Counted from the stretch's first letter, positions 2,637 to 34,788 are shown. The stretch is DNA of 64,000 bases from an uncultured Syntrophobacteraceae bacterium (GCA_964572145.1 CAZNES010000011.1:8687-72686), one strand, 5' to 3'. Notes: generated from the letters alone by a model not told the origin. Numbers and translations: made by a program.

Positions 2637-3605
2637 CTAATTCTGGCGCCGCGCGGCGGCTTTCTTCTCGATGAAATCGACGATCTGCGATTCGAGCTTC
2701 ACTCCCTCGAAGGCATTGATCTCTTGCACGCAGGTGGGGCTCGTGACGTTGACCTCGGTGAGGAAGCCGCCGATGACGTCGAGCCCGACAAAATAAAGTC
2801 CCAGCTTCTTAAACGGCGCCGCAAGCGCGCGGCAGATCTCGCGGTCTCGCGACGTGATGTCCGCTCGCGACGATGATCCTCCCACGTGAAGGTTGGCGCG
2901 GTTTTCATTCTCCTGCGGAATGCGAAGGAGCGCGCCGATGGGCTCGCCGTCGAGCACCAGCACGCGCTTGTCTCCCTGACGGATCTCGGGAAGATAGCGC
3001 TGCGCCATCACCGGGAACCGTCCTTCGCCGGTCATGAGTTCCAGGATCGCGGCGACGTTGCGGTCTTTACGGTTGAGATACAAAACGCCTCGTCCCCCCG
3101 CTCCTTCCAGCGGCTTGACAATCATCTCGCCTCCCTGTTCTTCCATGAATTGTTTGAGAAGAGCGATGTTGGCGCTCACGATCGAGGGCGGAATGATCCC
3201 GGGAAAGTTGAGCGCATAAAGTTTTTCCGTCGCTTCTCTGAGACCGTGAGGATCGTTGATCACGACGCATTGTCTCGGGTCCACCAGGCTCAAGAGATGC
3301 GTGGCGAAGAAAAATTTCATGTCGAAAGGCGGATCTTTGCGCATGAGAATGACGTCGAAAGCGCTGAGCGGCCCCGCGCCCTCTTTTTCGAAGCGATAGT
3401 GAGGATTCGCCCGCTCGACGCTCACGCGGCGAAAACGTCCCTCCGGCACGGCGCCGCGGACCGAGAGGTCGTCGAGCTCCATGTAGCACACTTCGTGGCC
3501 TCTCGATTGGGCCTCGAGCATCATGACGAACGTCGTGTCTTTATCGATGTGGATCTTATCGATCGGGTCCATGACAACCCCGATCTTGAGCCTACTCATG
3601 TTCAA
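2637..3605 (-). CDS. gshB: glutathione synthetase (ATP-grasp)
   Basis: 322 aa. MSRLKIGVVMDPI..., the ATP-grasp motifs and the prokaryotic GshB length and architecture. Confidence 0.85.
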   Translation of the reverse strand: MNMSRLKIGVVMDPIDKIHIDKDTTFVMMLEAQSRGHEVCYMELDDLSVRGAVPEGRFRRVSVERANPHYRFEKEGAGPLSAFDVILMRKDPPFDMKFFFATHLLSLVDPRQCVVINDPHGLREATEKLYALNFPGIIPPSIVSANIALLKQFMEEQGGEMIVKPLEGAGGRGVLYLNRKDRNVAAILELMTGEGRFPVMAQRYLPEIRQGDKRVLVLDGEPIGALLRIPQENENRANLHVGGSSSRADITSRDREICRALAAPFKKLGLYFVGLDVIGGFLTEVNVTSPTCVQEINAFEGVKLESQIVDFIEKKAAARRQN

Positions 3606-4163
3606 TCAGCTCCCCCGCTCGCTGCTCGTTTCTCTTATCACCCACGTGCGCGCCAGTGAATCGTGCCATCCCCTTTTCTCCCGGTTCCATAGAATGCGGA
3701 GAAAACCGAACAGCAGAGGCGCGCTAAGCAGCGCAACCAGCCAGCGGATCAGCGCCTGGCCATACCCGATACGCTCCTGGCCCGCGCCCACGACGCGCAG
3801 GCCGAACAGCCATTTGCCGACGGTTCTCCCGTCGAGACCATGAAGCACGACAAAATAGCCGCAGACGAGAAAGATCCATGCGCCGAGAAGCGCAGGCAAC
3901 GCTCCCTCAGCCGCTTCCCACGAGAGCGAGCGTTGGTGGGCGGCGAGTCCCACGCGGAAACCGAGCGCCGAGAGATAAAAGAGCAGCACAGAGAAGAGGC
4001 ACAAGACAAAAACGTCCACGAGAATAGCAAAACAGCGTCGGAAAAAGCCGCCCCATGCGACCGCGCTGGCGCGCTCTTCCTCCGTGAGCCGCTCGTAGAG
4101 TCGATCGTACTCCCGCTCAATCAGCGCTTGGAGCGCCGCCACGTCGTTTGTTTCGGCTTCCAT
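3606..4163 (-). CDS. RDD-family membrane protein
   Basis: 185 aa with two or three transmembrane segments and the R..D..D arrangement. It is adjacent to and co-oriented with gshB. Confidence 0.55.
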   Translation of the reverse strand: MEAETNDVAALQALIEREYDRLYERLTEEERASAVAWGGFFRRCFAILVDVFVLCLFSVLLFYLSALGFRVGLAAHQRSLSWEAAEGALPALLGAWIFLVCGYFVVLHGLDGRTVGKWLFGLRVVGAGQERIGYGQALIRWLVALLSAPLLFGFLRILWNREKRGWHDSLARTWVIRETSSERGS

Positions 4164-4216
4164 AAACCTAAGGAGTTTAAACCCTAAGCAGTCTCAAAGA
4201 AAGCGAGCCGGATGAA

Positions 4217-4993
4217 TTATCCCAGGTCGCCCCATAGAAACTGCGCCAGCGACAACGCTGCCACGGCGGCGGTTTCCGTGCGCAAAATTCTTTTTCCCAA
4301 GCGCACGGACTGAAAGCCGCTCTGCTCCGCTTCGGCGACTTCATCCGGGGCGAAGCCGCCTTCCGGCCCGATCACGAGGAGGAGCGAATCGAGGCTCGGC
4401 TTCTCTTCTCGCAGGCGCGCCAAACCGCGGGCCGTCTCATTTTCCCAAAAAATGAGCTTCAGATCGCAGGGCCACGGCCGCCGCACCAAATCGGAAAAAT
4501 CCATGACGTTTAGAATTTCCGGAACGCGGACGCGGCCGGACTGCTTGGCCGCGCTGAGAGCGATGCGCCCCCAGCGCGCCGCCTTTTTCTCACGCGCCGC
4601 GGCGTCGAGCTTGGGCACCGTACGCCGGCAGAGAAACGGCGCGATCGCCGACGCGCCGAGCTCCGTCGCCTTCTCGACGATCCAGTCGAGCTTGTCGCCT
4701 TTTCCCAGCGCCTGCGCCAATGTGATCCGAACGGAAGACTCGCGCTCGGGCCGGCAGGAATTTAAAATCTTGATTTCTCCCCGGCCGTCGGTGAACGAGC
4801 GAATGACCCCTTCATGTTCCCAACCTTCGTCGTCGAACAGAGTCACCCGATCGCCGGGCCCCAGGCGCAGCACTTTCCTCATATGTTCGAGCTCCGGACC
4901 GGCAATCGTAGCGCCGTCACCGTGGAAAATTTTTTTCGAGACAAAGAAACGCGCCACGATCAGCTCTTCTTTTGCAGCAGCAGCGTCACCCAT
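4217..4993 (-). CDS. rsmE: 16S rRNA (uracil1498-N3)-methyltransferase
   Basis: ARFFV N-terminus, the C-terminal SPOUT-like GPEGGF motif and the conserved position downstream of prmA. The start codon is uncertain; an ATG at 4993 or an upstream GTG is possible. The long 329-aa ORF is an artefact. Confidence 0.8.
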   Translation of the reverse strand: MGDAAAAKEELIVARFFVSKKIFHGDGATIAGPELEHMRKVLRLGPGDRVTLFDDEGWEHEGVIRSFTDGRGEIKILNSCRPERESSVRITLAQALGKGDKLDWIVEKATELGASAIAPFLCRRTVPKLDAAAREKKAARWGRIALSAAKQSGRVRVPEILNVMDFSDLVRRPWPCDLKLIFWENETARGLARLREEKPSLDSLLLVIGPEGGFAPDEVAEAEQSGFQSVRLGKRILRTETAAVAALSLAQFLWGDLG

Positions 4994-5832
4994 TCCTTCT
5001 CCCGGCGCTGGCGGATCAGGGAGAACGGCGCGGGGGAGAACCGGCTCGCCACCTGGCGTGCCTTGGGCTGCAAGATCCCGGAGAGAACGAGGTAGCCACC
5101 GTCGGCAACCCGCTCTTCGAGCGCGGCGGCGAGGTCGAAGATCGTCTCCGCGGTAAGATTCGCGACCACGACGCCGAACGATTCCTCGACGCGGTCCAGC
5201 CTGCAATTCGCGATTTTGATTCTGCGCTCGACGCCGTTCACCCGGACGTTGCCGCGCGCGACCTTGAGCGCCGTGGGATCGTTGTCGAGCGCCATGACGC
5301 TGTCGGCGCCCATCTTCGCCAAAGCGATGGCCAAAATTCCCGAACCGGTGCCGACGTCGAGAGCGTTTATCTCATCGCCGTTGAAGCGCCCGATCAGATG
5401 TTCCAGGAACTCGAGACAACACCGCGTCGTCGCGTGCGTTCCGGTGCCGAACGCCATGCCCGGTTCTATCGTGATGACGTGGCGGCGGCGCGTCTCGGGC
5501 GGCTCCACCCACGGAGGCGTGATCCACAGCGACCGCCCCACCTTGTGCGGAGAAAAAAAGCGCCGCCACGAATTCGCCCAATTTTTTTCCTTCAACAACC
5601 TCCAGGTGAGCGGATGGTCGCTGAAGCCGGGATAGATTTTGCGGATGTCGCGGAGAAAACGGTGAATCTCGCGCTTGAGCGCCGCAGTCCGCGGCGAACG
5701 GACAAAAAATGCCCGCACCTCGCTGCGCGTGAGAACGACGCCGGGAGAACCTCGCTCGATGAGGAAATTCGCGATCGCGTCGAGGGCCGGCGGAGGGGCC
5801 CTGAGAGAGAGTTGCAGCCACGAGACAGGCAC
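4960..5832 (-). CDS. prmA: ribosomal protein L11 methyltransferase
   Basis: 290 aa. The SAM-binding motif LDVGTGSGILAIAL and the PrmA N-terminal domain. It forms a prmA-rsmE pair. Confidence 0.88.
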   Translation of the reverse strand: MPVSWLQLSLRAPPPALDAIANFLIERGSPGVVLTRSEVRAFFVRSPRTAALKREIHRFLRDIRKIYPGFSDHPLTWRLLKEKNWANSWRRFFSPHKVGRSLWITPPWVEPPETRRRHVITIEPGMAFGTGTHATTRCCLEFLEHLIGRFNGDEINALDVGTGSGILAIALAKMGADSVMALDNDPTALKVARGNVRVNGVERRIKIANCRLDRVEESFGVVVANLTAETIFDLAAALEERVADGGYLVLSGILQPKARQVASRFSPAPFSLIRQRREKEWVTLLLQKKS

Positions 5833-5941
5833 ATATTTTTTATGCCATAGACCTGCGCGGGTAGCAACGGCGCGGCCGTGGCAGCGAGGGTTGGCAAAAA
5901 TTCCCAGCGCGGATATTAAGCAGGTACGGCAGCGCGCTTGC

Positions 5942-8014: not shown

Positions 8015-9646
8015 TCAACGGCGAATTTCCAGCGGCAGGATTTTCCCTCGCGGGCTGACGTAGGGGATCTCGCGCTTGATTCGGAGCGTGCCGGCGTCTT
8101 GCCAGATCCGGCTCATGAAACGATTGCTCCACGGGCCGGCCGACAAACCCTCTTGCAGCCGAGCCAGCAGCTTGGCTTCGTCGACGCTTCCCACTTGCGG
8201 GTGAACCACCAGCGTCAAGCGAGTCTGTCCGTTCCTGTCCTCCTCCTCGACGAGCTGGTAATCGCCGGGGCCGCCGCCGAACTCGGAAGGAAAGACTCTT
8301 TCCACGAGATCGAAGAGATCGACGTAGAAATAGTTCATGCCCTCACTAGTAAACTTCTCGAAGCTCCGGATGTGGTGCAGATGCAGCGTGAGCCCGGCGT
8401 CTTCCAACTCACAGCCGCAATTTCTCTTTTCCAGCGTCGCGTAATCTCCATTCTCGACGTTGAGGAGCATCCGCGGAGCTTCGGCATAAAGGCTCGTGCA
8501 GAGAAGAGGATGGATCGGCGGGCCGGCGGCGGCTAAAGACATGGGCCGAGGAATGATCGCAAGCGCGTGCTGATTGACGTGGACTTCGTCCCGGTGGCGC
8601 GGCCGGGCGCAGCCGAATCCGGCCGTGACGCCGCCGCCGTAGCTATACCGTGAAGTGAAGCTCGCGCCTGCCCGTCGGATCGCCTCTTCCTTCGCTTCGG
8701 TGAAAGGCTCGCCGGCGACGTTGAACTTGGTCCCTTCGAGCGAGACTCCCATTTCCGACGCGGTGCGCGCGATGCGCGCCGCGCTGCTCGCAATAGTGAT
8801 GATGTAGCAATTTCTCTTTCCGCGCTTCTCTTCTTCTATCCAGCGAACAATCGACCCCATGTCCTCGACGTCGATAAAGCGCGGCATGGGAAAACCGGGA
8901 CCGTGCCGTTTGCCGGTGAGCACGACCAGACAGGTCGTGAGATAGTGCGCCATCGCATGGAGCCGGCTCAGCTCCGGACTCCGGCGCGCGAACCAGCGAT
9001 CGGTCGCTTTGCCGAGCCTGGCGTTGACCAGGAGATGGTGCACCGCGCTGCCGGGAAGAATCGCGTCGTAGATCGCGTGAGCATAGGAGAAAAGATCGTG
9101 CGCGGCGAAGAACACGCCGGTTCCGATCGTCCGTATGGCGAGCCAGTCCAAAGGGATGACCGAGCGCACGGGCCGGTTGCGCGTCCCGCTGCTCTGGATG
9201 GTGAATCCGACCGGCAGGTCCGCGCGCGCGAAATCCGCCGGCGTGACGCGGAAACATTCCCGGCCGCGAACGATTTCTTTCTTGCCCTTGAATTCGTCCG
9301 AGGTGAGATAAACCCCGTCCGCCGCGAGCTGCTCCAGAGTTTGCTCGATTCCCCGGCGGCGGACCTGAGTTTGAAGATCGGAAAAATCGCAGCCGGAGTT
9401 TTTGAGAAGCTTCAGGTAAGGGCTGGCCGGACGCTCGTAAATTTGCGTCCGCACCAAATCGAGAAATCTTTCGGACCTCGTCTCCAGAGCCCTTCCGACT
9501 TCCTGCTTGGCGCGGTGAACGGTAATGCGCTCGCGGAGAAACTCACCGACGGCGGCTGAGAGCGCAATTTTCCCTTTGACGTCGAAGTTCCTGAGACCGT
9601 TTTGCAATTCCCGATAGCGCCGGCTCAGCGCTTCCAGTCGAGTCAT
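8015..9646 (-). CDS. ANL-superfamily adenylate-forming enzyme (GH3 / F390-synthetase / PaaK-like)
   Basis: 543 aa. QSSGTRNRPVRSVIP resembles the GH3/PaaK phosphate-binding motif (SSGT..G.PK.IP). The length is typical of bacterial GH3-like proteins. Confidence 0.45.
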   Translation of the reverse strand: MTRLEALSRRYRELQNGLRNFDVKGKIALSAAVGEFLRERITVHRAKQEVGRALETRSERFLDLVRTQIYERPASPYLKLLKNSGCDFSDLQTQVRRRGIEQTLEQLAADGVYLTSDEFKGKKEIVRGRECFRVTPADFARADLPVGFTIQSSGTRNRPVRSVIPLDWLAIRTIGTGVFFAAHDLFSYAHAIYDAILPGSAVHHLLVNARLGKATDRWFARRSPELSRLHAMAHYLTTCLVVLTGKRHGPGFPMPRFIDVEDMGSIVRWIEEEKRGKRNCYIITIASSAARIARTASEMGVSLEGTKFNVAGEPFTEAKEEAIRRAGASFTSRYSYGGGVTAGFGCARPRHRDEVHVNQHALAIIPRPMSLAAAGPPIHPLLCTSLYAEAPRMLLNVENGDYATLEKRNCGCELEDAGLTLHLHHIRSFEKFTSEGMNYFYVDLFDLVERVFPSEFGGGPGDYQLVEEEDRNGQTRLTLVVHPQVGSVDEAKLLARLQEGLSAGPWSNRFMSRIWQDAGTLRIKREIPYVSPRGKILPLEIRR

Positions 9647-9701: not shown

Positions 9702-11084
9702 TCAGCGCGCGACCGGCGTGACGAATTCTCCGTCGCCCGGCTTCCCCACCACTTTCCCGTTTTCCATCACCACTTTGCCGCGGACGATAGTATAAATTGG
9801 CGCGCCTTTGACCTTGCGTCCGTGGTAAGGAGTCCAGCCGACTTTGGTGTAAGTCGTTTCATTGGTGATTGTCTCCTCGCGCTCCATGTCGACGATCGTG
9901 ATGTCGGCATCCGACCCGACCTGGATCACGCCTTTGCGCGGATAGACGCCGAAGATGCGCGCGGGATTGTACGAAGTGATGCGCACGAGCTGATCGAGCG
10001 TCAACTTTCCCTGGTTGACCGCGGTCAAAAATAATCTCAGGTAGTCTTGAATCTGGGGCTCGCCGCCAGGCGATTTCCACATGTCTTTCCAGCCGACGTC
10101 TTTTTCTTCCTTGGTGTGCGGCGCGTGGTCGGTGCCGACGACCTCGATTGTCCCATCCTTGATCGCCGTCCAGAGAGCCTCCATATGCTCGTCCGGCACC
10201 CAGAAGCCGAGACAATAAGGCCCCAACTTCTCCACGTTCTCCCAGGTCGCGAGGAAAAGCGCCCAGGGATTCACCTCACCGGTCACGGGCCTTCCTTCTT
10301 CTTTGGCGCGCCGGATCATTTCGATTCCACCAGGCGTGCTCATGTGAAGGATGTGGAGCTTGGTGCCGGTCGATTTTTGAAAACGGATCAGCGTCGCGAT
10401 CGCCGTGTCCCAGATGATGCCGTCGAAGTCGCGGTACGCTTTGCCGTACGCCTGGGGGCTGCGGTCGCCGCGCTCCCAGTAGCGCTGCTCGATCACGTCC
10501 ATCAAATCCTGATCGTGCGGATGGACCATGAGCGGCAGGCCGGTCTTCGCCACGGCTTCGAACGAGCGGAAAAGCTCGCCGTGATTGTGCAGCCCGATGC
10601 CCGGCATGTGCGGATAATCGCGGCCGGTGTCCCGCACCATGAAAATTTTAAACGCGAGGCAGCCTTCTTTGGCGAGTCCGGGAATCTGTTCCGGAACGGT
10701 TCCCGAAGGGTTGTGGTTGAAATCGACGATCGCCTTCTTTTTGTGATCTTCAATCAGGTTCCGATAACGCTCCACGGTCGTGGTCGGCGGATTGACGTTC
10801 GGCATGCCGATCGAGAGCGTCACGCCTCCCGCGGCGGCCGCCATCGTCGCGGTCGTCAAATCTTCCTTATGCGTGAAGCCGGGATCGCGGTGATGCGTAT
10901 GCGTGTCGATCAATCCCGGAATGACTTTCTTTCCTTTCGCGTCGATGACTTTACGCGCTTCTGGAAACGAGGGAGATTGGCCGAGCGCAACGATCTTGCC
11001 CCGGTTGATCGCAATATCGGCAGCGACAAAACCGCCGGGTGTCCATACGTCTCCGTTTTTTACGACGAGATCTACCCGATCCAT
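9702..11084 (-). CDS. cyclic amidohydrolase (dihydropyrimidinase / hydantoinase / allantoinase family)
   Basis: 460 aa. The metal-binding DTHTHH motif and the D-hydantoinase-like length and blocks. Confidence 0.75.
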   Translation of the reverse strand: MDRVDLVVKNGDVWTPGGFVAADIAINRGKIVALGQSPSFPEARKVIDAKGKKVIPGLIDTHTHHRDPGFTHKEDLTTATMAAAAGGVTLSIGMPNVNPPTTTVERYRNLIEDHKKKAIVDFNHNPSGTVPEQIPGLAKEGCLAFKIFMVRDTGRDYPHMPGIGLHNHGELFRSFEAVAKTGLPLMVHPHDQDLMDVIEQRYWERGDRSPQAYGKAYRDFDGIIWDTAIATLIRFQKSTGTKLHILHMSTPGGIEMIRRAKEEGRPVTGEVNPWALFLATWENVEKLGPYCLGFWVPDEHMEALWTAIKDGTIEVVGTDHAPHTKEEKDVGWKDMWKSPGGEPQIQDYLRLFLTAVNQGKLTLDQLVRITSYNPARIFGVYPRKGVIQVGSDADITIVDMEREETITNETTYTKVGWTPYHGRKVKGAPIYTIVRGKVVMENGKVVGKPGDGEFVTPVAR

Positions 11085-11276
11085 AAGGTTGCTTTCTCCG
11101 TTCGAAAAAAGTTCAAGAAACCTTTATATGATCCGTGTTTACCCCTGTCAACAGAGTGTAAAACACAGAGTGTAAAAATCCGGCTCCGGCAGCCTACGCG
11201 CGGAACTTGACTCTGCTGGGGGAATTTGAAAGTATTCACTCCGACCTCGTCTAACAGGATGAAGGAGGACACCACC

Positions 11277-12287
11277 ATGAGGCAAATACTCGGTTCGTTC
11301 TTTGCCGGGCTGGCACTGCTGGTCTTTGCAGCGGGTCCGAGCTTCGGCCAGGACGCGAAGCTCATCGAGGCGGGCAAAAAAGAAGGGAAAGTCGTCATCT
11401 ACGGCTCGCTTGAATCCGACACTATGGACACCGTGAGCAAGGCATTTCAAAAGAAAACCGGCATCGAGGTCGAGTACTGGAGAGCCTCGGCCACCAAAGT
11501 GATGGACCGGGCCGTGAGCGAGTACCGCGCGGGGAAACCCGGCTTCGACATTATCTTGACCAACGATAATCCCCTGCAGTTGATGCAAAAACAGGGAGTC
11601 TTCGCTAAGTACGACTCTCCGTCCGCCAAAGCTTTTCCGAAAGAAGCGATCGATCCCAATCTGGGCCCCAGATATCGCAACGTCGTGATCGGCGTCGTCT
11701 ACAATAAAAGCATAGTCAGTCCCGCCGACGCGCCGAAATCTCTCGAAGACCTGGTGAACCCTAAATACAAAGGCAAGCTCGTGATGCCGGATCCCACCCA
11801 GCACACGACTACGACACAGTGGGTCGCCAGTCTCGAAAAGCTGATGGGCAAAGAAAAAGCCGAGAAATATATTCGGGATCTCGCCGCCATGAAACCGATC
11901 CTGGTCGAGTCTCTGCTCCCGGCCGCGGAGCGCGTTTCGACGGGAGAGACGCCGATCGCGATCACCTACGTGAAATACGCTTACATCTTCGGTCAAAGAG
12001 GCGCGCCGTTGGATTACGTCCGGTTGGGAAAAATGATGGGTGACGGCCACTATCTGGCATTGGGCAACAAAGCTCCGCACGTCAACGCCGCCAAGACCTT
12101 CATCGACTATTTCCTCGGCGAGGAGAGCATGTCGATCATCGCCAAGATGGGCGAATTCGTCAATCGAAAAGGCGTCTATCCGCCGCTGCCGGATGCCGAT
12201 AAGATCCAGTTCGTCGAGATGTACGATCTCGACGAAAAAGGTTTTGCCGAGAAGAAGAAGGAGTACACTAAAATCTTTCTGCAATAG
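11277..12287 (+). CDS. ABC transporter periplasmic substrate-binding protein (FbpA/ThiB-type, solute-binding family 1)
   Basis: Signal peptide MRQILGSFFAGLALLVFAAGPSFG and SBP-like composition. It is followed by a fused two-domain permease. Confidence 0.7.
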   Translation: MRQILGSFFAGLALLVFAAGPSFGQDAKLIEAGKKEGKVVIYGSLESDTMDTVSKAFQKKTGIEVEYWRASATKVMDRAVSEYRAGKPGFDIILTNDNPLQLMQKQGVFAKYDSPSAKAFPKEAIDPNLGPRYRNVVIGVVYNKSIVSPADAPKSLEDLVNPKYKGKLVMPDPTQHTTTTQWVASLEKLMGKEKAEKYIRDLAAMKPILVESLLPAAERVSTGETPIAITYVKYAYIFGQRGAPLDYVRLGKMMGDGHYLALGNKAPHVNAAKTFIDYFLGEESMSIIAKMGEFVNRKGVYPPLPDADKIQFVEMYDLDEKGFAEKKKEYTKIFLQ

Positions 12288-16986: not shown

Positions 16987-17964
16987 TTACGTATCTAAAG
17001 TCGCAGGCGCGAAGAGATCTTCGACAGCCGGCATTTTCTCCATCAGCCCCTGATCCAGAGAGTAGCCCATAAACCGCTCGATATTAGCGCGGTTCTTCCC
17101 AACGCCGTACGGCCACGGGTCGTCGCCCAGCAAATGTCTCTCCTCCTCGAAGAGATGGCGCCCCCAGGCGAGACGCGACCAGTTCGGATCGTCGTAATAG
17201 CGCCGGCAAACTTCCTTGGCCTTCTCGAATGCGTCCATCATACCCCGCGCGAGCCACGGATTTTGTTTGAGCACTTCATCCTTGAACGCCACCACGTGCA
17301 TGATGGGAAAAAATCTGTTCTTGCGAAAATAGTTTAACTCTTCCTGCTTGGCGTTGGAAAAGAGCCGGCGGATCTTCCCCGAGCCTCGCAACACTTCTTT
17401 CGGCGGGTGCGGCATGAACAGCGCGTCGATCTCGCCCGCTTCCAGCAAGCTCCCGATCTTTTTCCCCGCCGGGACGAGCCGAATCTTCACGCCCTCCTGA
17501 GGCTTGAACGGAACCGTCTCTTCCTTGGCGACGACCCACTCGATCTTGCGCCAGTCCACGTCGTATTCGGACTGCAAATCTCCCTTGGCCAGAACGGAAA
17601 GCGTCGTTTGATACGTGCTGAGTCCGACTTTACGGTCGATGAGATCTTTCGGAGAGTCGATGCCGGCCCCGGCGCGCACCCACATTTGCGACATGCTGAA
17701 AAGGCGGCGCGGAAAAACCGGGATAGCGGTAAAAGGCATGCTGCGGCTCTTGGCCATGAGATAGGAGGAAAGGGAAAGCTCGCAGATATCGAACTCCCCT
17801 TTCTGGAGCATTCTTTCATGGCGATCGACGCCGTGTTTTAACGGCTCCGATTGCCCGACCAGCAGCACGTTCAAATCCGCGCCATCGAGTGAAACAGCGC
17901 CGTCGAAAAAAGGAAAATGGCGGTCGTAATGAGACAGCGCCATCTTGAGCTTGAGCTTGGCCAT
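16987..17964 (-). CDS. 4,5-dihydroxyphthalate decarboxylase (PhtD)-family protein, paralog 2
   Basis: 325 aa. LKMALSHYDRHFPFFDG...FDICELSLSSYL parallels the 14090-15082 product. Confidence 0.55.
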   Translation of the reverse strand: MAKLKLKMALSHYDRHFPFFDGAVSLDGADLNVLLVGQSEPLKHGVDRHERMLQKGEFDICELSLSSYLMAKSRSMPFTAIPVFPRRLFSMSQMWVRAGAGIDSPKDLIDRKVGLSTYQTTLSVLAKGDLQSEYDVDWRKIEWVVAKEETVPFKPQEGVKIRLVPAGKKIGSLLEAGEIDALFMPHPPKEVLRGSGKIRRLFSNAKQEELNYFRKNRFFPIMHVVAFKDEVLKQNPWLARGMMDAFEKAKEVCRRYYDDPNWSRLAWGRHLFEEERHLLGDDPWPYGVGKNRANIERFMGYSLDQGLMEKMPAVEDLFAPATLDT

Positions 17965-20514: not shown

Positions 20515-20720
20515 AGCCTCATTAGTATCAGGCCTTCTGGTGAGAGCAACCGTAAGGGCGAAAGGCCTCCGTGAGTCTCACCTTGTGAACGGGATTAGTG
20601 GTTAGAGCAGCATCCGACCGGAGCCAAGTGCCTGCCGTGCGAGCTCTCATGTTCTTCTCCCATCAATAATCCGGGTCCCAAGGCAAAGACCTTAAATGAC
20701 GTTCTCAGTTGGAGGAGAAT

Positions 20721-21062
20721 ATGGGCAATAAGTTATACGTGGGCGGTCTGCCCTATTCCGTGACGGAAGGGAGGCTCGAAGAGATCTTTGCCGAGTACGG
20801 CGCCGTAACATCGGCCCGAGTTATCTCGGACAAGTTTACCGGGCAATCGCGCGGCTTCGGCTTCGTCGAGATGAACTCTTCGGAAGATGCCCAAAAAGCG
20901 ATCGAGGCCCTGAACGGAACGCAAATGGACGGCCGCACGCTGGTCGTCAATGAGGCGAGGCCTCAAGAAACACGTCCGGGCGGGGGCGGAGGAGGCGGTG
21001 GTGGCGGCGGCGGAGGTGGAAACCGAAGAGGCGGCGGCGGTGGCGGACGCGACCGCTGGTAA
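20721..21062 (+). CDS. RRM-type RNA-binding protein with a glycine-rich tail
   Basis: KLYVGGLPY (RNP2) and RGFGFVEM (RNP1), with a C-terminal G-run of 14 or more residues. The RBS GGAGGAG lies 4 nt upstream of the ATG. Confidence 0.85.
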   Translation: MGNKLYVGGLPYSVTEGRLEEIFAEYGAVTSARVISDKFTGQSRGFGFVEMNSSEDAQKAIEALNGTQMDGRTLVVNEARPQETRPGGGGGGGGGGGGGGNRRGGGGGGRDRW

Positions 21063-21093
21063 TCCTTTCTCGCTAAGCAATAAATAAAAAAAG

Positions 21094-21128
21094 GAGCGAT
21101 GGGTCGGATCGCTCCCTTTTTTTATTTC
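21094..21128 (+). terminator. rho-independent terminator
   Basis: Hairpin GGAGCGATGGGTCGGATCGCTCC followed by a T-run. It sits immediately after the RRM gene. Confidence 0.75.
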
Positions 21129-21152: not shown

Positions 21153-22190
21153 TTAAGCCTCCATATTATAGAAGCGTTTGCCGTTGTCGGAGAGAATCTT
21201 TCTCTTGGCCGAGTCCTTCAGATCTTTTCGCGACTCGAACTCCCGAATCGCCTCCGCAAGGTCCGGCTCATGCGGATAATCGGAGGCGTAAAGAAATAGA
21301 TCTTCGCCCAGTCTTTCCATCGCCGTGGGAAGCATGTCTTCCCAGAGCTCGGTGTGATAATAAATCTGGCCGCTCTTCATATAGTCGCTGGGTTTTTTCT
21401 TGAGCAGCGGCGCCTGGCGCGCGCGATTCTTGTATTCCATATCCAGCCGGTCCATGAGGAACGGCAGCCAGGCACACCCCGCCTCCAGCGAGGCGATCTT
21501 GAGTTTGGGAAATCGCTCTAATACTCCTTCGAGGATCACGCTCGTCAGTTGAATCATTTGCGCGAACGGATGGGACAGGGCCCGGGCTTGGATCAACGAA
21601 CGGAAAAAGTCGAACCCAAGTCCGCGCGAGGGAGCGCCGTGAATGCAGAGCGGCGCGCCCAACTTCTCTGCCTCGGCGTACAGCGGATCGAAGTACGAAT
21701 CGCCGAGCGGCGTAGGGAACCCCACGGGAGCGATCACGCCGCCCGCCATGTGAAGCTCCTTGACGCACCGCCTCAACTCCCGGGCAGCTTCTTTGATGTC
21801 TTGTATCGGCAGGAGGGCGACGGCGCCAAGTCTACGGTTATATTTGATGTAACGCTCCGCCATCATGTTGTTGTAGGCGCGGCAGACGACCACGGCCCAG
21901 TCGGCGTCCTGGATGAAACCTTCGGCGAGACCGGCCGTGGGAAAAATCACCGCCCGGTCCAGCCCTTCGCGGTCGAGCACTTCGAACCAGCTCTTAGGAT
22001 CGTCGGGGCCGATCACGTAAGGCCGGCCGTCGCCGACGCGGCGCGCCATGCGCTGAAAACCGTCGAGTGTGGGAAAGAAAGGAAGCGAGAGCAGCTCTTT
22101 TCGCCCGCGGTAAGGCGCCTCCATGAACTCGGCGATGTCCTGATCTTTTTCAAAAATATGGCCGTCCGTATCGACGACTTGCATAGCCAT
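21153..22190 (-). CDS. amidohydrolase-2 (ACMSD / LigW-type metal-dependent decarboxylase-hydrolase) family protein
   Basis: 345 aa. TIM-barrel amidohydrolase_2 blocks (VDTDGHIFE...AGGVIAPVGFP...YASDYPH). Confidence 0.6.
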   Translation of the reverse strand: MAMQVVDTDGHIFEKDQDIAEFMEAPYRGRKELLSLPFFPTLDGFQRMARRVGDGRPYVIGPDDPKSWFEVLDREGLDRAVIFPTAGLAEGFIQDADWAVVVCRAYNNMMAERYIKYNRRLGAVALLPIQDIKEAARELRRCVKELHMAGGVIAPVGFPTPLGDSYFDPLYAEAEKLGAPLCIHGAPSRGLGFDFFRSLIQARALSHPFAQMIQLTSVILEGVLERFPKLKIASLEAGCAWLPFLMDRLDMEYKNRARQAPLLKKKPSDYMKSGQIYYHTELWEDMLPTAMERLGEDLFLYASDYPHEPDLAEAIREFESRKDLKDSAKRKILSDNGKRFYNMEA

Positions 22191-22240
22191 TGGCAGTTCC
22201 TCCTTGCTTTTCTAAGCCTTATCTCCTGCCGGCCAAAAAC

Positions 22241-23341
22241 TCAATCTCGGATGGATTGCGTGAACCACTCGGTTGGTATTTCTCTGCCTATCCCTTTCTT
22301 CTTCGCCTCGTTAAAAACCGCCGTGCAGGTGGCGGCGAACTGCACCCCCATGACGCCGAGATTCAAAAACCAGCTCGTCTGCTTGTCGTTCGTCCGGCCC
22401 TTCGCTTTGCCGGATATTACGTCCGCGAGCGTCGGCATCTTGAGTATTTCCGCGCGCGGCGGGCGGCGCGGAATCCTCACCTTCTCCTCCGCCTGGCCGG
22501 CGACGTAGCCGAGAAATCCGTGCGACGCGTAAAACGCGCCCGGCGGCGGATTTTCCAGATGCGGCGTGCTCTCGCCCATGCTGACCGCCACATCGACGGC
22601 ATTCGCAAATCCCGGTTCGGTTTCGTCCCAGGTGACGTCGGTGACGTGCATGCCGGGCTCCAGCCACTCGGTCTTGAAGACGGGATCGATCGACGAAGTG
22701 CAGCAGGAGACGATATCGACGCCCTTGACCGCATCGCGCGCGGAGGCTGTGGGCTCGACCTCGATGCGAAATTTCTCGCTCATATCTTTCGCGTATTGCC
22801 GCGCGTTCGCCAGGTTCGGGCTGTAAACTTTCACCTTGGTAATTTTGCGCACGCAGGAGAATGCTTCCAAATAAGTCCGCGCCATGCCGCCGGAGCCGAT
22901 CATTCCGACGACGTAGCTCTCTTTCGAAGCCAAATATTTTACGCCCAGCCCGGCGCCGGCGGCCACGCGCATGTGCTGAAGATAGCCGTCGTTGATCAGC
23001 GCGACCGGCATGCCGTTCCGCGTGCTGAACATGAACAGCAAACCGCAATAAGTTCCCGGCTCGATGCAGTGCTTGTCTTCGCGCTGGTTGCCCTTTTCGC
23101 CGGGCCAGCTCACGATGTCCGAGAGCATCCGCGCGACGACGTAGCCGTCCCGCCTCGCGCCGCCGGTCATCAAGGCCCAGCGGTAGTAACTCTCCGGCCG
23201 TTCGCACGGCAAATAGACGTCGATGCGGCCCATCGTCGCGGCGTCACCCTTGACGATTTCCTTTTGCGTCTCTTCGAGCGCCTCCAGGGTCATCGGCATG
23301 GTTAAAATTTTCTGCACGTCGTCGTCCTTCAAAAGCAGCAT
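22241..23341 (-). CDS. ornithine cyclodeaminase / mu-crystallin family protein
   Basis: 366 aa. The Rossmann GMIGSGGMARTYLEAF motif at the position expected for OCD-family enzymes. Confidence 0.65.
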   Translation of the reverse strand: MLLLKDDDVQKILTMPMTLEALEETQKEIVKGDAATMGRIDVYLPCERPESYYRWALMTGGARRDGYVVARMLSDIVSWPGEKGNQREDKHCIEPGTYCGLLFMFSTRNGMPVALINDGYLQHMRVAAGAGLGVKYLASKESYVVGMIGSGGMARTYLEAFSCVRKITKVKVYSPNLANARQYAKDMSEKFRIEVEPTASARDAVKGVDIVSCCTSSIDPVFKTEWLEPGMHVTDVTWDETEPGFANAVDVAVSMGESTPHLENPPPGAFYASHGFLGYVAGQAEEKVRIPRRPPRAEILKMPTLADVISGKAKGRTNDKQTSWFLNLGVMGVQFAATCTAVFNEAKKKGIGREIPTEWFTQSIRD

Positions 23342-23352
23342 GAACGCTCCTC

Positions 23353-23952
23353 TTATGTTTTTCGGTGATCCGGAGAACCGAGGATTTGCTTCTTTTCGGT
23401 CTCTTCGATGTGGCGAATGAAGCGGTACTTGTTCTCCAGCTCATCGACGCGAATCGGCGGCAGGCTGGGCTGTCCCGGCTCGACTTTGACGGCGATGAAG
23501 CTGAGCGCGTTTCTCTTCCACGCGACGAGAAATTCCTGGCGGAACTCCTCGGGGCTTTTCACCCAACAGGCGTGCTTGTAGCCCGCGCCCTTGGCCAGCG
23601 CGACCACGTCCGTCCCCGACACGGTCGCGGTCTCGGACGCGCCCGAGGCCTCGTAGCATTGGTTGTCGAAGAGGAGATGAATGAGATTCGGCGGATTCTG
23701 CCAGGCGATGGTCGGCAAGCCGCAGAGATTCATCAGAAACGCGCCGTCGCCATCGATGGCGACGACCTTGCGATGGGGAAGCCCAAGCGCGATCCCTAAA
23801 GAAATTGAAGACGCAAGGCCCAGCGTGCGCGGCCGGAAATTTCCGTCGCCCGGCCGGAGCGCCTGCCACTCGCGCGCCGCCCAGCCCGCCGCGACGACCA
23901 GCGCGTCGCCGGCATCCTCGGCAATCGTCTTCAGATAGTCGTAGCGCTGCAT
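23353..23952 (-). CDS. TPP-dependent decarboxylase beta subunit (sulfopyruvate/phosphonopyruvate decarboxylase ComE-like)
   Basis: 199 aa. The TPP-binding GDG...N motif (IDGDGAFLMNLCGLPT). Its ATG overlaps the ComD-like stop (ATGA). Confidence 0.6.
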   Translation of the reverse strand: MQRYDYLKTIAEDAGDALVVAAGWAAREWQALRPGDGNFRPRTLGLASSISLGIALGLPHRKVVAIDGDGAFLMNLCGLPTIAWQNPPNLIHLLFDNQCYEASGASETATVSGTDVVALAKGAGYKHACWVKSPEEFRQEFLVAWKRNALSFIAVKVEPGQPSLPPIRVDELENKYRFIRHIEETEKKQILGSPDHRKT

Positions 23953-24455
23953 TATCCGGTTCCCAAAATATTTTTCGTGAGCAGCACGGCGACCGGCCGC
24001 CGCGAGTCCTCGGCCAGGATCTGGGCGCCTCGGAGCGTTTCCGCAACCTCGTCCATTTTGCGCAGCACGTACGTGCGAATGCCGAGCGCTTCGAGCACCG
24101 GCTCGGTCACCGACCCGACGATGGCAAAGCCGCGGTCGCCGATATCGCCGGCGTAGTAAATCAGCAGAAGCAGCGGAATCTGAAATTGCAGGCAGGTCGT
24201 GGTGAGCGCGTTGCAGCTATTGAGCAGCCCGGCGTTCTGCATCAAGAGCGCCGGCTTTTTCCCCGTGAGATAGGCGCCGGCGCAAATTCCGACGCCCTCC
24301 TCTTCGCGGCACAGCGGGACATGCTTGAGATCCGGATCCTTATCTACGGCCCGGATCACTTCGACCAGCTTCAGGTCCGGCAGCGTGGCGACAAAATCAA
24401 CGCGCGCGCGCTTGAGCGCCTCGATGAAGTTCGTTGCGGCCTCTAAAGCATTCAT
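23952..24455 (-). CDS. TPP-dependent decarboxylase alpha subunit (ComD-like, pyrimidine-binding domain)
   Basis: 167 aa. TPP-enzyme N-terminal (PYR) domain. It is translationally coupled to the beta subunit. Confidence 0.6.
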   Translation of the reverse strand: MNALEAATNFIEALKRARVDFVATLPDLKLVEVIRAVDKDPDLKHVPLCREEEGVGICAGAYLTGKKPALLMQNAGLLNSCNALTTTCLQFQIPLLLLIYYAGDIGDRGFAIVGSVTEPVLEALGIRTYVLRKMDEVAETLRGAQILAEDSRRPVAVLLTKNILGTG

Positions 24456-24573
24456 TCCAATTGCCGATCGATTTACCGACGCGCGAGACGCGACGTTAAT
24501 AACTCAACCCGCATACTAAAAGCGTGCCGATTATTCAAGAGCGTTAGAGTCAATCGCCGGCATGATTTGAGTC

Positions 24574-24601
24574 TTGACAGAAAAAAAACAAGCCCTATAG
24601 T
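24574..24601 (+). promoter_or_regulatory. sigma70-consensus promoter TTGACA-N16-TATAGT for gcvH
   Basis: -35 at 24574-24579 and -10 at 24596-24601. The same CCCTATAGTGGGG block is present at 5961-5975. Confidence 0.55.
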
Positions 24602-24616
24602 GGGGACGTTGCCGGT

Positions 24617-25006
24617 ATGGAGCGGACTTTAAAAGTCAGCGAGCATCACGTTTGGGTGGGCATCGACGATCAGCACGTATTCTTCGGCGTGACGAACTAC
24701 GGCCAGAGCGAGCTCGGCCGGATCATCTCCTTAGAACTCCCGGAGCTGGGAGACAAAGTCGAAAAGGGGGAAGCTTTCGCGGAGGTGGAATCCCAGAACA
24801 CGGCGGCCGAGCTGATCGCGCCGGTTTCGGGAACGGTGATCGCGGTCAATCCTGAACTGGAATCGCATCCGTCGATCATCAACGAAGATCCTTACAACCA
24901 CGGGTGGATAATCGAGGTCGAGCTGAAAGATATTTCCGAAGTCCGGTCCTTGATGGACACGGACGAGTATTATCACTTTGTCTTCAAGCCGAACCCCGGC
25001 GAATAG
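24617..25006 (+). CDS. gcvH: glycine cleavage system protein H
   Basis: 129 aa. The lipoyl-lysine motif region ...ESQNTAAELIAPVSG... and the GcvH length. Confidence 0.85.
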   Translation: MERTLKVSEHHVWVGIDDQHVFFGVTNYGQSELGRIISLELPELGDKVEKGEAFAEVESQNTAAELIAPVSGTVIAVNPELESHPSIINEDPYNHGWIIEVELKDISEVRSLMDTDEYYHFVFKPNPGE

Positions 25007-33675: not shown

Positions 33676-34788
33676 ATGCTGGCAACCAGAATCGTCCAGA
33701 AAGAGGGCACTTTTTACTTCGCCGCCGTGAAGGCGAGCGAATTGCTGGACCGGGTGCGTTTCACCAGCCGCTACTACTTCGAGGGCGAGGAGATCGCGCC
33801 GGACGACACCGGGGACGACGAGGTCGCGCGCTTCATCTCCGGCATCGAAAAGACCGAAAGGTCGTTCCAACGCGTCCTGAACCAACGCAAGGTAAAACAG
33901 ATCGTCAACTTTTACGAAACGGCCGTGAGCCAGCCTTTGATCCCCGGCACGATCCTTTTGTTCACCGAGGAGACCTTGGGCTTTCGCCGGCAGGACGGCT
34001 CCGACACCATCGGATTTGTAAGCGAACCGAAGGGCAAGTTTTTGATCATCGACGGACAGCACCGGCTGGCGGCGCTCCATTTCTTTAGCCAGAAACATCC
34101 CGAGACGGCCAAGCAGCTCGACGTCCCGTGCGTTCTGTTCGACGGCAAAAGCGCGGACTTCGCCACCGAGATGTTTGTCATCATCAACTCGACGCACACG
34201 CGGATCAACAAGTCGCACCTGGTCGATCTCTACGAGCGGGTCTCGTGGGAAACGCCGGAGAAAAAACTCGCGGCAAAAGTGGTCAACCTGCTCTACGAAG
34301 AGAGCGACTCGCCGCTCCGCTACCGCATCAACCGGCTGGGCGGACGCAGCCGCCAGGAAAAATGGATCTTACAGTCGGAGCTTTTCAACGAGATCTACAA
34401 AGTGGTGCTCAAGAACCGCAAATTTTTCGACGAGCATTTCCAGTTCCGCTCCGACTACGTGTACGCGCTGGTCCGGGATTATTTCAAGGCGGTGCGCGAC
34501 GTGATGCATTCGGTCTGGGGCGACAACGAGCGCTACATGTTCACGCGCGACGTTACGCTCAAAGCGCTCATCCGCGTCTTCGGCGACTTGATCCGCAACC
34601 GGAACGTCTTCCGCGCCTGGGACGAGAAGCGCGACCCGCGGATATTCATGGGCGTGATACGGCCGTGGCCCGAGCTGGCGCGGGAATTTCGCGCCGAGGG
34701 ATTCTACGAGCGCTTTCCCGCCAAGGGACAGGTCGAGCGCGTCCGGCGCATTCATTTGAAGTTGAGCCAAGCGATCGGCTACGCGTGA
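33676..34788 (+). CDS. DGQHR-domain protein (DndB-like, ParB/Srx fold)
   Basis: 370 aa. The LIIDGQHRLAALHF motif is diagnostic of the DGQHR/DndB family. No dnd or ssp genes are adjacent. Confidence 0.7.
   Translation: MLATRIVQKEGTFYFAAVKASELLDRVRFTSRYYFEGEEIAPDDTGDDEVARFISGIEKTERSFQRVLNQRKVKQIVNFYETAVSQPLIPGTILLFTEETLGFRRQDGSDTIGFVSEPKGKFLIIDGQHRLAALHFFSQKHPETAKQLDVPCVLFDGKSADFATEMFVIINSTHTRINKSHLVDLYERVSWETPEKKLAAKVVNLLYEESDSPLRYRINRLGGRSRQEKWILQSELFNEIYKVVLKNRKFFDEHFQFRSDYVYALVRDYFKAVRDVMHSVWGDNERYMFTRDVTLKALIRVFGDLIRNRNVFRAWDEKRDPRIFMGVIRPWPELAREFRAEGFYERFPAKGQVERVRRIHLKLSQAIGYA

Follow-up and report, generated by a model that had tools for sequence, protein, structure and literature searches.

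A four-gene operon of Candidatus Binatia as a probable juxtaposition of a split thiamine diphosphate decarboxylase and an amine/imine oxidoreductase-oxygenase-like pair

Why would the two chains of a thiamine diphosphate (TPP) enzyme, a protein of the ornithine cyclodeaminase (OCD)/mu-crystallin family and a member of the Amidohydro_2 family be encoded one right after the other? The question is raised by four minus-strand genes lying at positions 21,153 to 24,455 of a 64,000-nucleotide stretch of DNA, hereafter the window, from an uncultured Syntrophobacteraceae bacterium (GCA_964572145.1 CAZNES010000011.1:8687-72686). An earlier reading of this DNA (the original prediction) had described a tight operon that matches no pathway with a name; the spacing is borne out, the four genes agree with the open reading frames (ORFs) and Pfam domains that we find, and we can name no pathway either. 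The closest relatives of all four proteins belong to metagenome-assembled genomes (MAGs) of Candidatus Binatia, some of them labelled as Deltaproteobacteria or otherwise; the window is itself from a genome of this class, that of an uncultured soil bacterium. The answer that we favour, at somewhat better than even odds, is that two modules of two genes each, both self-sufficient, have been placed side by side in a lineage-specific manner, with a common promoter region and terminator. The first module would be the split TPP enzyme (TPPa and TPPb, together TPPab), and the second an OCD-like protein together with an enzyme from the lineage of the amidohydrolase-related dinuclear oxygenases (AROs). 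The four genes are the following:

23952..24455, minus strand: TPPa, 167 amino acids (aa); PF02776 TPP_enzyme_N, E 2.7e-9
23353..23952, minus strand: TPPb, 199 aa; PF02775 TPP_enzyme_C, E 2.3e-15
22241..23341, minus strand: OCD-like gene, 366 aa; PF02423 OCD_Mu_crystall, E 4.6e-37, 128 bits (cut-off 24)
21153..22190, minus strand: Amidohydro_2 gene, 345 aa; PF04909 Amidohydro_2, E 7.2e-32, 111.7 bits

Within the window, the four genes read as one predicted transcription unit, because the first two overlap by one base, the next spacers measure 11 nt (TPPb to OCD-like gene) and 50 nt (OCD-like to Amidohydro_2 gene), and a single terminator closes the series. The shared base is 23952, located in a TAATG in which the stop codon TAA meets the start codon ATG, and not the four-base ATGA overlap previously described; each spacer holds a purine-rich ribosome-binding stretch. 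Just past the last stop codon lies the sole strong terminator-like hairpin, which also ends a converging gene whose product is an RNA-binding protein of the RRM_1 type, extended by a long Gly-rich tail (20709-21062, plus strand). At the other end, a divergent intergenic region separates TPPa from gcvH, and no consensus promoter for the minus-strand operon was found in it (24456..24616). The elements bounding the operon are:

21086..21122: bidirectional intrinsic-terminator-like hairpin, with a 15-bp stem and a T-run on both strands
24456..24616: divergent intergenic region between the operon and gcvH, 161 nt
24574-24601, plus strand: strong sigma-70-like promoter of gcvH, TTGACA-16-TATAGT, 11/12 matches
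24617..25006, plus strand: gcvH, divergent neighbour of TPPa; TIGR00527 119.7 bits (cut-off 115.85)

Is such a unit maintained in other genomes? Two scans bear on this point, one centred on the OCD-like gene (tblastn of the window proteins, one genome per species) and the other on TPPb (metagenome contigs, with 61 informative loci that extend at least 700 nt past this gene). Protein identities of 74-98% for the genes across dozens of other contigs are more than chance would produce. At least 22 Binatia contigs besides that of the window hold the quartet, from 12 species-level genomes and 10 metagenome contigs, and the conservation on which the original prediction depended is thereby established. 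It is not, however, a stable unit. In the TPPb-centred scan, the OCD-like gene comes next after TPPb in 10 of the 61 loci, all of them with a TPPb at least 85% identical to that of the window, and TPPab stands alone in the remaining 51. Conversely, the OCD-Amidohydro_2 pair is devoid of TPPab in at least 12 genome loci. In six of them it directly follows gcvH, with the eno-ftsB-gcvH synteny kept (L005, L014, L018, L023, L025, L026), and in six others it is found at different sites among genes that bear no relation from one site to another (L015, L017, L019, L021, L022, L045).

In the OCD-centred scan, the Amidohydro_2 gene (74-97% identity) stands right after the OCD-like gene (77-97%) in every Binatia locus with downstream sequence, and TPPa-TPPb precedes this pair in 12 loci. 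In turn, wherever upstream sequence is available, TPPa almost always has gcvH as its divergent neighbour, as in L061 and L062, where gcvH, TPPa and TPPb are followed by an unrelated converging gene. The quartet loci belong to close relatives of the window (enolase 83-97% identical), and both two-gene layouts are mostly found in more distant Binatia (enolase 72-80%). Over the same loci, each of the four proteins approximately matches enolase in its conservation, which we read as strong constraint on two modules that each persist on their own.

Another layout is seen in L072 (TPPb 85% identical). There, TPPb is followed at once by the same terminator hairpin, and then by the RRM gene, an NMT1-like gene and LpxA, so that its flanks are those of the window minus the OCD-Amidohydro_2 pair. 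Since flanks and terminator are shared, the pair is a clean 2.2-kb indel between the TPPb stop codon and the terminator. No flanking repeats, which could be a sign of mobility, were found around the cassette. The quartet may be ancestral, the other layouts having been left by clean deletions, or it may have arisen through an insertion. The operon carries a caution for inference from genome context, namely that a tight and conserved-looking operon can consist of two separable modules placed side by side.

As for the first module, the ComD/ComE-like character attributed to the TPP subunits holds: PYR and PP domains reside on two chains, the TPP/Mg-binding motif GDGAFLMN...FDN of TPPb is invariant in the homologue alignment, and the best NCBIfam scores are those of the ComD and ComE models, followed by that of phosphonopyruvate decarboxylase (Ppd). 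Every one of these scores is nevertheless below its equivalog cut-off, since TPPa reaches 134.4 bits with TIGR03845 (ComD, cut-off 147.95), TPPb 127.4 bits with TIGR03846 (ComE, cut-off 221.5), and the two 80.7 and 115.3 bits, respectively, with TIGR03297 (Ppd, cut-off 312.5). The best solved relatives are the subunits of RhiEF, RhiE for TPPa (9iz3_A, E 8.9e-15) and RhiF for TPPb (9iz3_B, E 9.9e-15). With ComDE and RhiEF the pair shares the absence of a middle domain, the translationally coupled genes and the GDG...N motif; it departs from RhiEF in being about 30% identical over partial length, from ComDE and Ppd in the lack of coenzyme M, sulfolactate or phosphonate partner genes in the window, and from both ComDE and RhiEF in being a class-wide core pair fixed beside gcvH, where TPPa orthologues 70-96% identical are found in nearly all Binatia loci. 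Taken together, these features point to a TPP-dependent decarboxylase of 2-oxo acids that is heteromeric like ComDE and RhiEF and of their type, encoded by a core gene pair of the class Binatia, and whose substrate is probably not the sulfopyruvate or phosphonopyruvate of a classical pathway. The split architecture is not confined to these two substrates, as illustrated by LumKL, a split TPP enzyme that decarboxylates a heterocycle. We also observed that the C-terminal tail of TPPb, D-E-[LVI]-E-N-K-Y-R-F-[IM]-R, is invariant across homologues 68-98% identical (approximately residues 155-199, window 23353-23490), and that it extends past both the Pfam TPP_enzyme_C match and the region aligned to RhiF.

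The third protein is a genuine representative of the OCD/mu-crystallin fold, as had been proposed. Besides its PF02423 domain, it displays the Rossmann motif GMIGSGGMA, and its AlphaFold model (predicted local distance difference test, pLDDT, 81.8) retrieves with Foldseek, as top matches, the Pyr2C reductase 6t3e (E 2.4e-25), the alanine dehydrogenase (AlaDH) 1omo, the iminosuccinate reductase 6rqa and SbnB. It shares with the Pyr2C reductase 6T3E of Thermococcus, the AlaDH 1OMO of Archaeoglobus, BhcD and SbnB the overall fold (template modelling, TM, score of about 0.8 to the targets), the Rossmann GxGxxA signature and the conserved Arg of the 'MRV/MRT' substrate-carboxylate motif. Its nearest solved relatives reduce or oxidise the C=N or C-N bonds of alpha-amino and alpha-imino acids, and the window protein is predicted to be an NAD(P)-dependent amine/imine oxidoreductase of the same family. 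Its place within the family is another matter. The alignment to solved relatives is good only over residues 100-240, approximately, which correspond to the Rossmann half; the protein is 366 aa long, against some 320-350 aa in 6T3E, 1OMO, BhcD and SbnB, and its substrate domain has insertions around residues 75-100 and 240-300 that are modelled with low confidence. Moreover, the 13 matching NCBIfam equivalogs of the family all score 30-121 bits against cut-offs of 266-500, and the protein fits none of the characterised subfamilies (OCD, AlaDH, Pyr2C reductase, SbnB, BhcD, EutC).

Second-tier homologues of the OCD-like protein (55-61% identity) come mostly from Alphaproteobacteria and Actinomycetota, and among them neither Amidohydro_2 nor TPP genes are ever neighbours. 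Outside Binatia, their sole recurrent neighbour is a TctC/Bug-type periplasmic carboxylate-binding protein, present in seven of the 23 loci examined (L029, L033, L036, L037, L043, L047, L048) as two neighbour clusters, of five and four loci, with L029 and L047 in both. This hints at imported carboxylates as substrates of the OCD homologues in those lineages. In Actinomycetota, three OCD-family paralogues lie in tandem in L042 (318-2984), and in L044 two of them are in tandem about 4 kb from a third (4757-5857, 10039-12201); the paralogues of these loci are 55%, 37% and 43% identical to the window protein.

The fourth protein had been regarded as an ACMSD/LigW-type enzyme, a view that the comparisons with solved structures do not sustain. 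The AROs, described by Liu, Rittle and co-workers, comprise SfbO, AibH2, PtmU3, DitZ and BarH/DolJ, and the orphan structures 8SM7, 8SM8 and 8SM9 are counted among them; with Fe2 or Mn/Fe sites and O2, they carry out C-H hydroxylation (including that of a carbon beside nitrogen), N-dealkylation and oxidative decarboxylation (PMC10811679, PMC13154177). Two elements define them, a D-x-H on strand 1 near the N terminus, which provides two ligands of metal 1, and a D-x-P-H-x-[D/E] loop towards the C terminus, with ligands of metal 2; they occur in no characterised hydrolase or decarboxylase of the PF04909 fold (PMC13154177). In a sequence search of the PDB, the window protein finds on top 8SM9, 8SM7, 8SM6 and 8SM8 (E 4e-32 to 3e-21), followed by LigW and ACMSD (about 1e-19). 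When a family profile built from 24 homologues is run against the PDB, the AROs reach 158 (8sm9), 155 (8sm7), 131 (8sm8), 124 (SfbO), 116 (PtmU3) and 105 bits (AibH2), against 86-90 bits for the decarboxylases (gamma-resorcylate decarboxylase, ACMSD and LigW). Likewise, the AlphaFold model (pLDDT 85) is closest to AROs in Foldseek, with TM scores of 0.78-0.81 against 0.70-0.75 for decarboxylases.

The residues that would hold the metals tell a similar story. Within the PF04909 TIM barrel that it shares with the AROs, D9-x-H11, the mid-barrel H184 and E236, and D304-x-P-H307 align with ligand positions of 8sm9, 8sm7, 8sm8, SfbO and PtmU3, the mid-barrel His and Glu corresponding to the remaining metal-1 and bridging ligands. 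The six positions lie at the ends of model strands 1, 5, 6 and 8, and D9-G10-H11 is inside model strand 5-12 and aligns with the D-x-H of 8sm7, 8sm8 and 8sm9. D-x-D-G-H is kept in all of 112 full-length homologues; E236 is invariant and H184 at least 90% conserved. The C-terminal loop, D-Y-P-H-E-P-D, is where the family departs from the AROs: the strict D-x-P-H-x-[D/E] is present in none of the 112, an invariant Glu follows the His (D-x-P-H-E, 111/112) at a position that is usually aromatic or variable in AROs, and the closing Asp/Glu stands one to three residues away from its usual place. Other differences are that the nearest structures are Mn-type AROs with Rieske partners, but the window protein has Gly and Glu at the two positions by which the Mn type is called, and that an OCD-family partner gene is absent from the published descriptions of AROs (PMC10811679, PMC13154177). 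In lacking a Rieske ferredoxin neighbour, the protein is rather like the diiron 'high-potential' subgroup (PMC13154177). Sulfonate specificity was considered and discarded, as the sulfonate-binding R232 and R235 of SfbO are not conserved in the family, R235 being aligned to an invariant H207.

Furthermore, a superfamily search of 1.84 billion representatives yielded 975 clusters at E <=1e-30, and within the best 150 of them D-x-P-H-E proteins prevail in the top ranks, passing gradually into proteins with the canonical D-[YFW]-P-H-[WF]-D and a D-x-D-G-H start in common with them. On these grounds the fourth protein files as a variant of the ARO lineage, not as a canonical member, and would carry a two-metal Fe/Mn site and an oxygenase activity. 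Due to the displaced acidic residue, the published ARO motif search would miss the D-x-P-H-E clade, which means that the published census leaves out a whole clade. In databases, the label 'amidohydrolase' or 'LigW-like decarboxylase' would be better replaced by probable dinuclear oxygenase, a likely correction of a mis-annotation.

Some observations on relatives of this protein are worth recording. Its second-tier homologues (50-55% identity) have inconsistent neighbours, among them an NMT1-type binding protein, a second Amidohydro_2 and UbiD. L015 contains two copies of the ARO-variant gene, at 3234-4277 (minus strand) and 8015-9052 (plus strand), whose products are 77% and 80% identical to the window protein; one adjoins the OCD gene, and the other lies 3.7 kb upstream on the opposite strand. 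In a Bacillota locus (L059, 8001-10236), a 49% homologue and a 377-aa paralogue are encoded in tandem, recalling the AibH1H2 heterodimer, and glycine reductase genes are found a few kb away. In several settings that are unrelated to one another, a substrate-binding protein of NMT1/SsuA-like character is again encoded close to the ARO-variant gene or a homologue of it (window 16987-17964, minus strand; L057 6676-7674; L019 6563-7549), the Pfam and SsuA-family scores of the window ORF being weak.

What could the second module do? Both the OCD and the ARO families act on C-N bonds of alpha-amino and alpha-imino acids. The pair may oxidise an amino acid or an N-substituted (secondary-amine) acid, the ARO-type protein carrying out an O2-dependent step, for example a hydroxylation beside the nitrogen or on the side chain, and the OCD-like protein an NAD(P)-linked imine/amine step on the same substrate. 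In the lineage where the modules are fused, C-N cleavage or deamination may supply TPPab with a 2-oxo acid, giving an aldehyde and CO2; the decarboxylase would be coupled to the second module only loosely. The gene structure, the domains and folds, the conserved metal-ligand and TPP motifs and the separate occurrence of the modules are observed, whereas the metals, the oxygenase activity, the substrates and any metabolic link between modules are inferred. An unlikely but attractive extension would be that the pair constitutes an unrecognised two-enzyme oxidation, using O2 and NAD(P), of a sarcosine-, opine- or proline-like metabolite in the core metabolism of Binatia, with the gcvH-linked TPPab as its dedicated 2-oxo-acid decarboxylase. 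This would amount to a new amino-acid-to-aldehyde route, and to a dinuclear oxygenase with its ligands arranged in a new way (D-x-P-H-E).

One Binatia lineage offers a further observation. In L143, L144 and L045, the neighbour of the OCD-ARO pair is a second, divergent Amidohydro_2 gene whose product has the canonical ARO motif, DADSH ... DMPHGE (L143 7386-8492, minus strand), and then come hydantoinase/oxoprolinase A and B and an isochorismatase-family hydrolase (L143 2138-6951). This set resembles the route that leads to sarcosine from N-methylhydantoin, by way of N-carbamoylsarcosine. As a weak lead from a single lineage, the resemblance would agree with a secondary amine as substrate.

Several points weigh against the interpretation of two juxtaposed modules with an ARO-type enzyme in the second. 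At least one genome retains both modules in spite of their lack of linkage, a single MAG containing L062 (TPPab) and L017 (OCD-Amidohydro_2) at separate sites. Besides, the three layouts at the gcvH site also fit an ancestral four-gene operon with later clean deletions, a history that would favour an old functional link over an incidental one. Regarding the enzyme itself, DYPHEP stands in place of the strict ARO motif, and the acidic residue that comes next is out of position and not kept in all homologues, so that a two-metal site is no more than plausible; and no gene for a Rieske ferredoxin or other reductase is found nearby to feed electrons into a monooxygenase chemistry.

Three other explanations have to be considered. 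The first is a dedicated four-step sulfonate or phosphonate pathway, for example one that takes cysteate or phosphonoalanine by way of sulfo- or phosphonopyruvate as far as sulfo- or phosphonoacetaldehyde, or else one degrading an N-alkyl-taurine or opine. In such a scheme, the 2-oxo acid decarboxylated by TPPab would be a product or a substrate of the OCD-like enzyme, and the ARO would cleave an N-(2-sulfoethyl) or related group, like SfbO. This explanation draws on the preference of TPPa and TPPb for the ComD and ComE models and then Ppd, and on the predicted co-transcription in at least 22 contigs. Among OCD homologues there is also a tauropine dehydrogenase of a sponge, which serves only as a lead in the same direction. 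In addition, SfbO frees sulfoacetaldehyde from N-substituted taurines, and one ARO belongs to a phosphonate gene cluster (PMC10811679, PMC13154177). We nonetheless deem it improbable: scores fall under all the equivalog cut-offs, the SfbO arginines are not conserved, and the modules are apart in most loci. Moreover, the sulfonate, phosphonate or coenzyme M setting suggested at first is not seen, since the search that had been recommended, covering the 64-kb window, returned no phosphoenolpyruvate (PEP) mutase, no coenzyme M (comA/B/C) or sulfolactate (suyAB) genes, no xsc and no sulfite exporter.

Likewise doubtful is a fourth protein of the ACMSD/LigW/LigI type, mononuclear and acting as a hydrolase or a non-oxidative decarboxylase, which would make the operon a 2-oxo-acid or aromatic-acid decarboxylation route. 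Membership in PF04909, the unmet strict C-terminal motif and the significant matches to LigW, ACMSD and gamma-resorcylate decarboxylase (E about 1e-19 to 1e-24, TM 0.70-0.75) are compatible with it, but the AROs are ahead by 30-70 bits with the family profile, the clade grades into AROs of canonical motif, and the D-x-H on strand 1, the Glu after strand 6 and the His of D-x-P-H are absent from characterised PF04909 hydrolases and decarboxylases (PMC13154177). Nor are there aromatic catabolic genes nearby; the link with aromatic-acid genes elsewhere in the window, also contemplated in the original prediction, comes down to a single LigB-like ORF (948-1811), 20 kb off and beyond housekeeping genes. 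Finally, the OCD-like gene could be a housekeeping ornithine cyclodeaminase or archaeal-type alanine dehydrogenase with unrelated passengers as neighbours. JGI calls many homologues 'alanine dehydrogenase', the conservation (77-97%) is like that of enolase and the chromosomal surroundings are housekeeping; however, TIGR02371 (alanine dehydrogenase) gives 118 bits against a cut-off of 409 and the OCD models 63-73 against 337-438, only the Rossmann half aligns well, the substrate domain has insertions, and the Amidohydro_2 gene always comes next in Binatia, at several unrelated sites. We give this last alternative still less credit than the other two. The juxtaposition of two modules, the second with an ARO-lineage enzyme, thus stays as our preferred reading of the operon.

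A literature search found no paper describing this gene combination. What is new here is an ARO-lineage clade with an altered loop, its constant OCD-family partner, and a class-wide orphan ComDE-like decarboxylase. In a class without cultured members that abounds in soils and groundwater, the OCD-ARO pair is conserved about as much as enolase, and it thus represents a small and clearly delimited target for the discovery of enzymes.

The rest of the window, surveyed through Pfam scans of about 55 ORFs, is ordinary chromosome. It encodes enolase, FtsB/DivIC, GcvH, PurD, PurH, alanine racemase and LpxA, together with MreBCD, PBP2, RodA, glutathione synthetase, GTP cyclohydrolase I and four tRNAs. 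A DndB-like ORF (PF14072, DNA-sulfur-modification-associated; 33676-34788, plus strand), placed between alanine racemase and unannotated ORFs, may belong to a small locus for defence or DNA modification.

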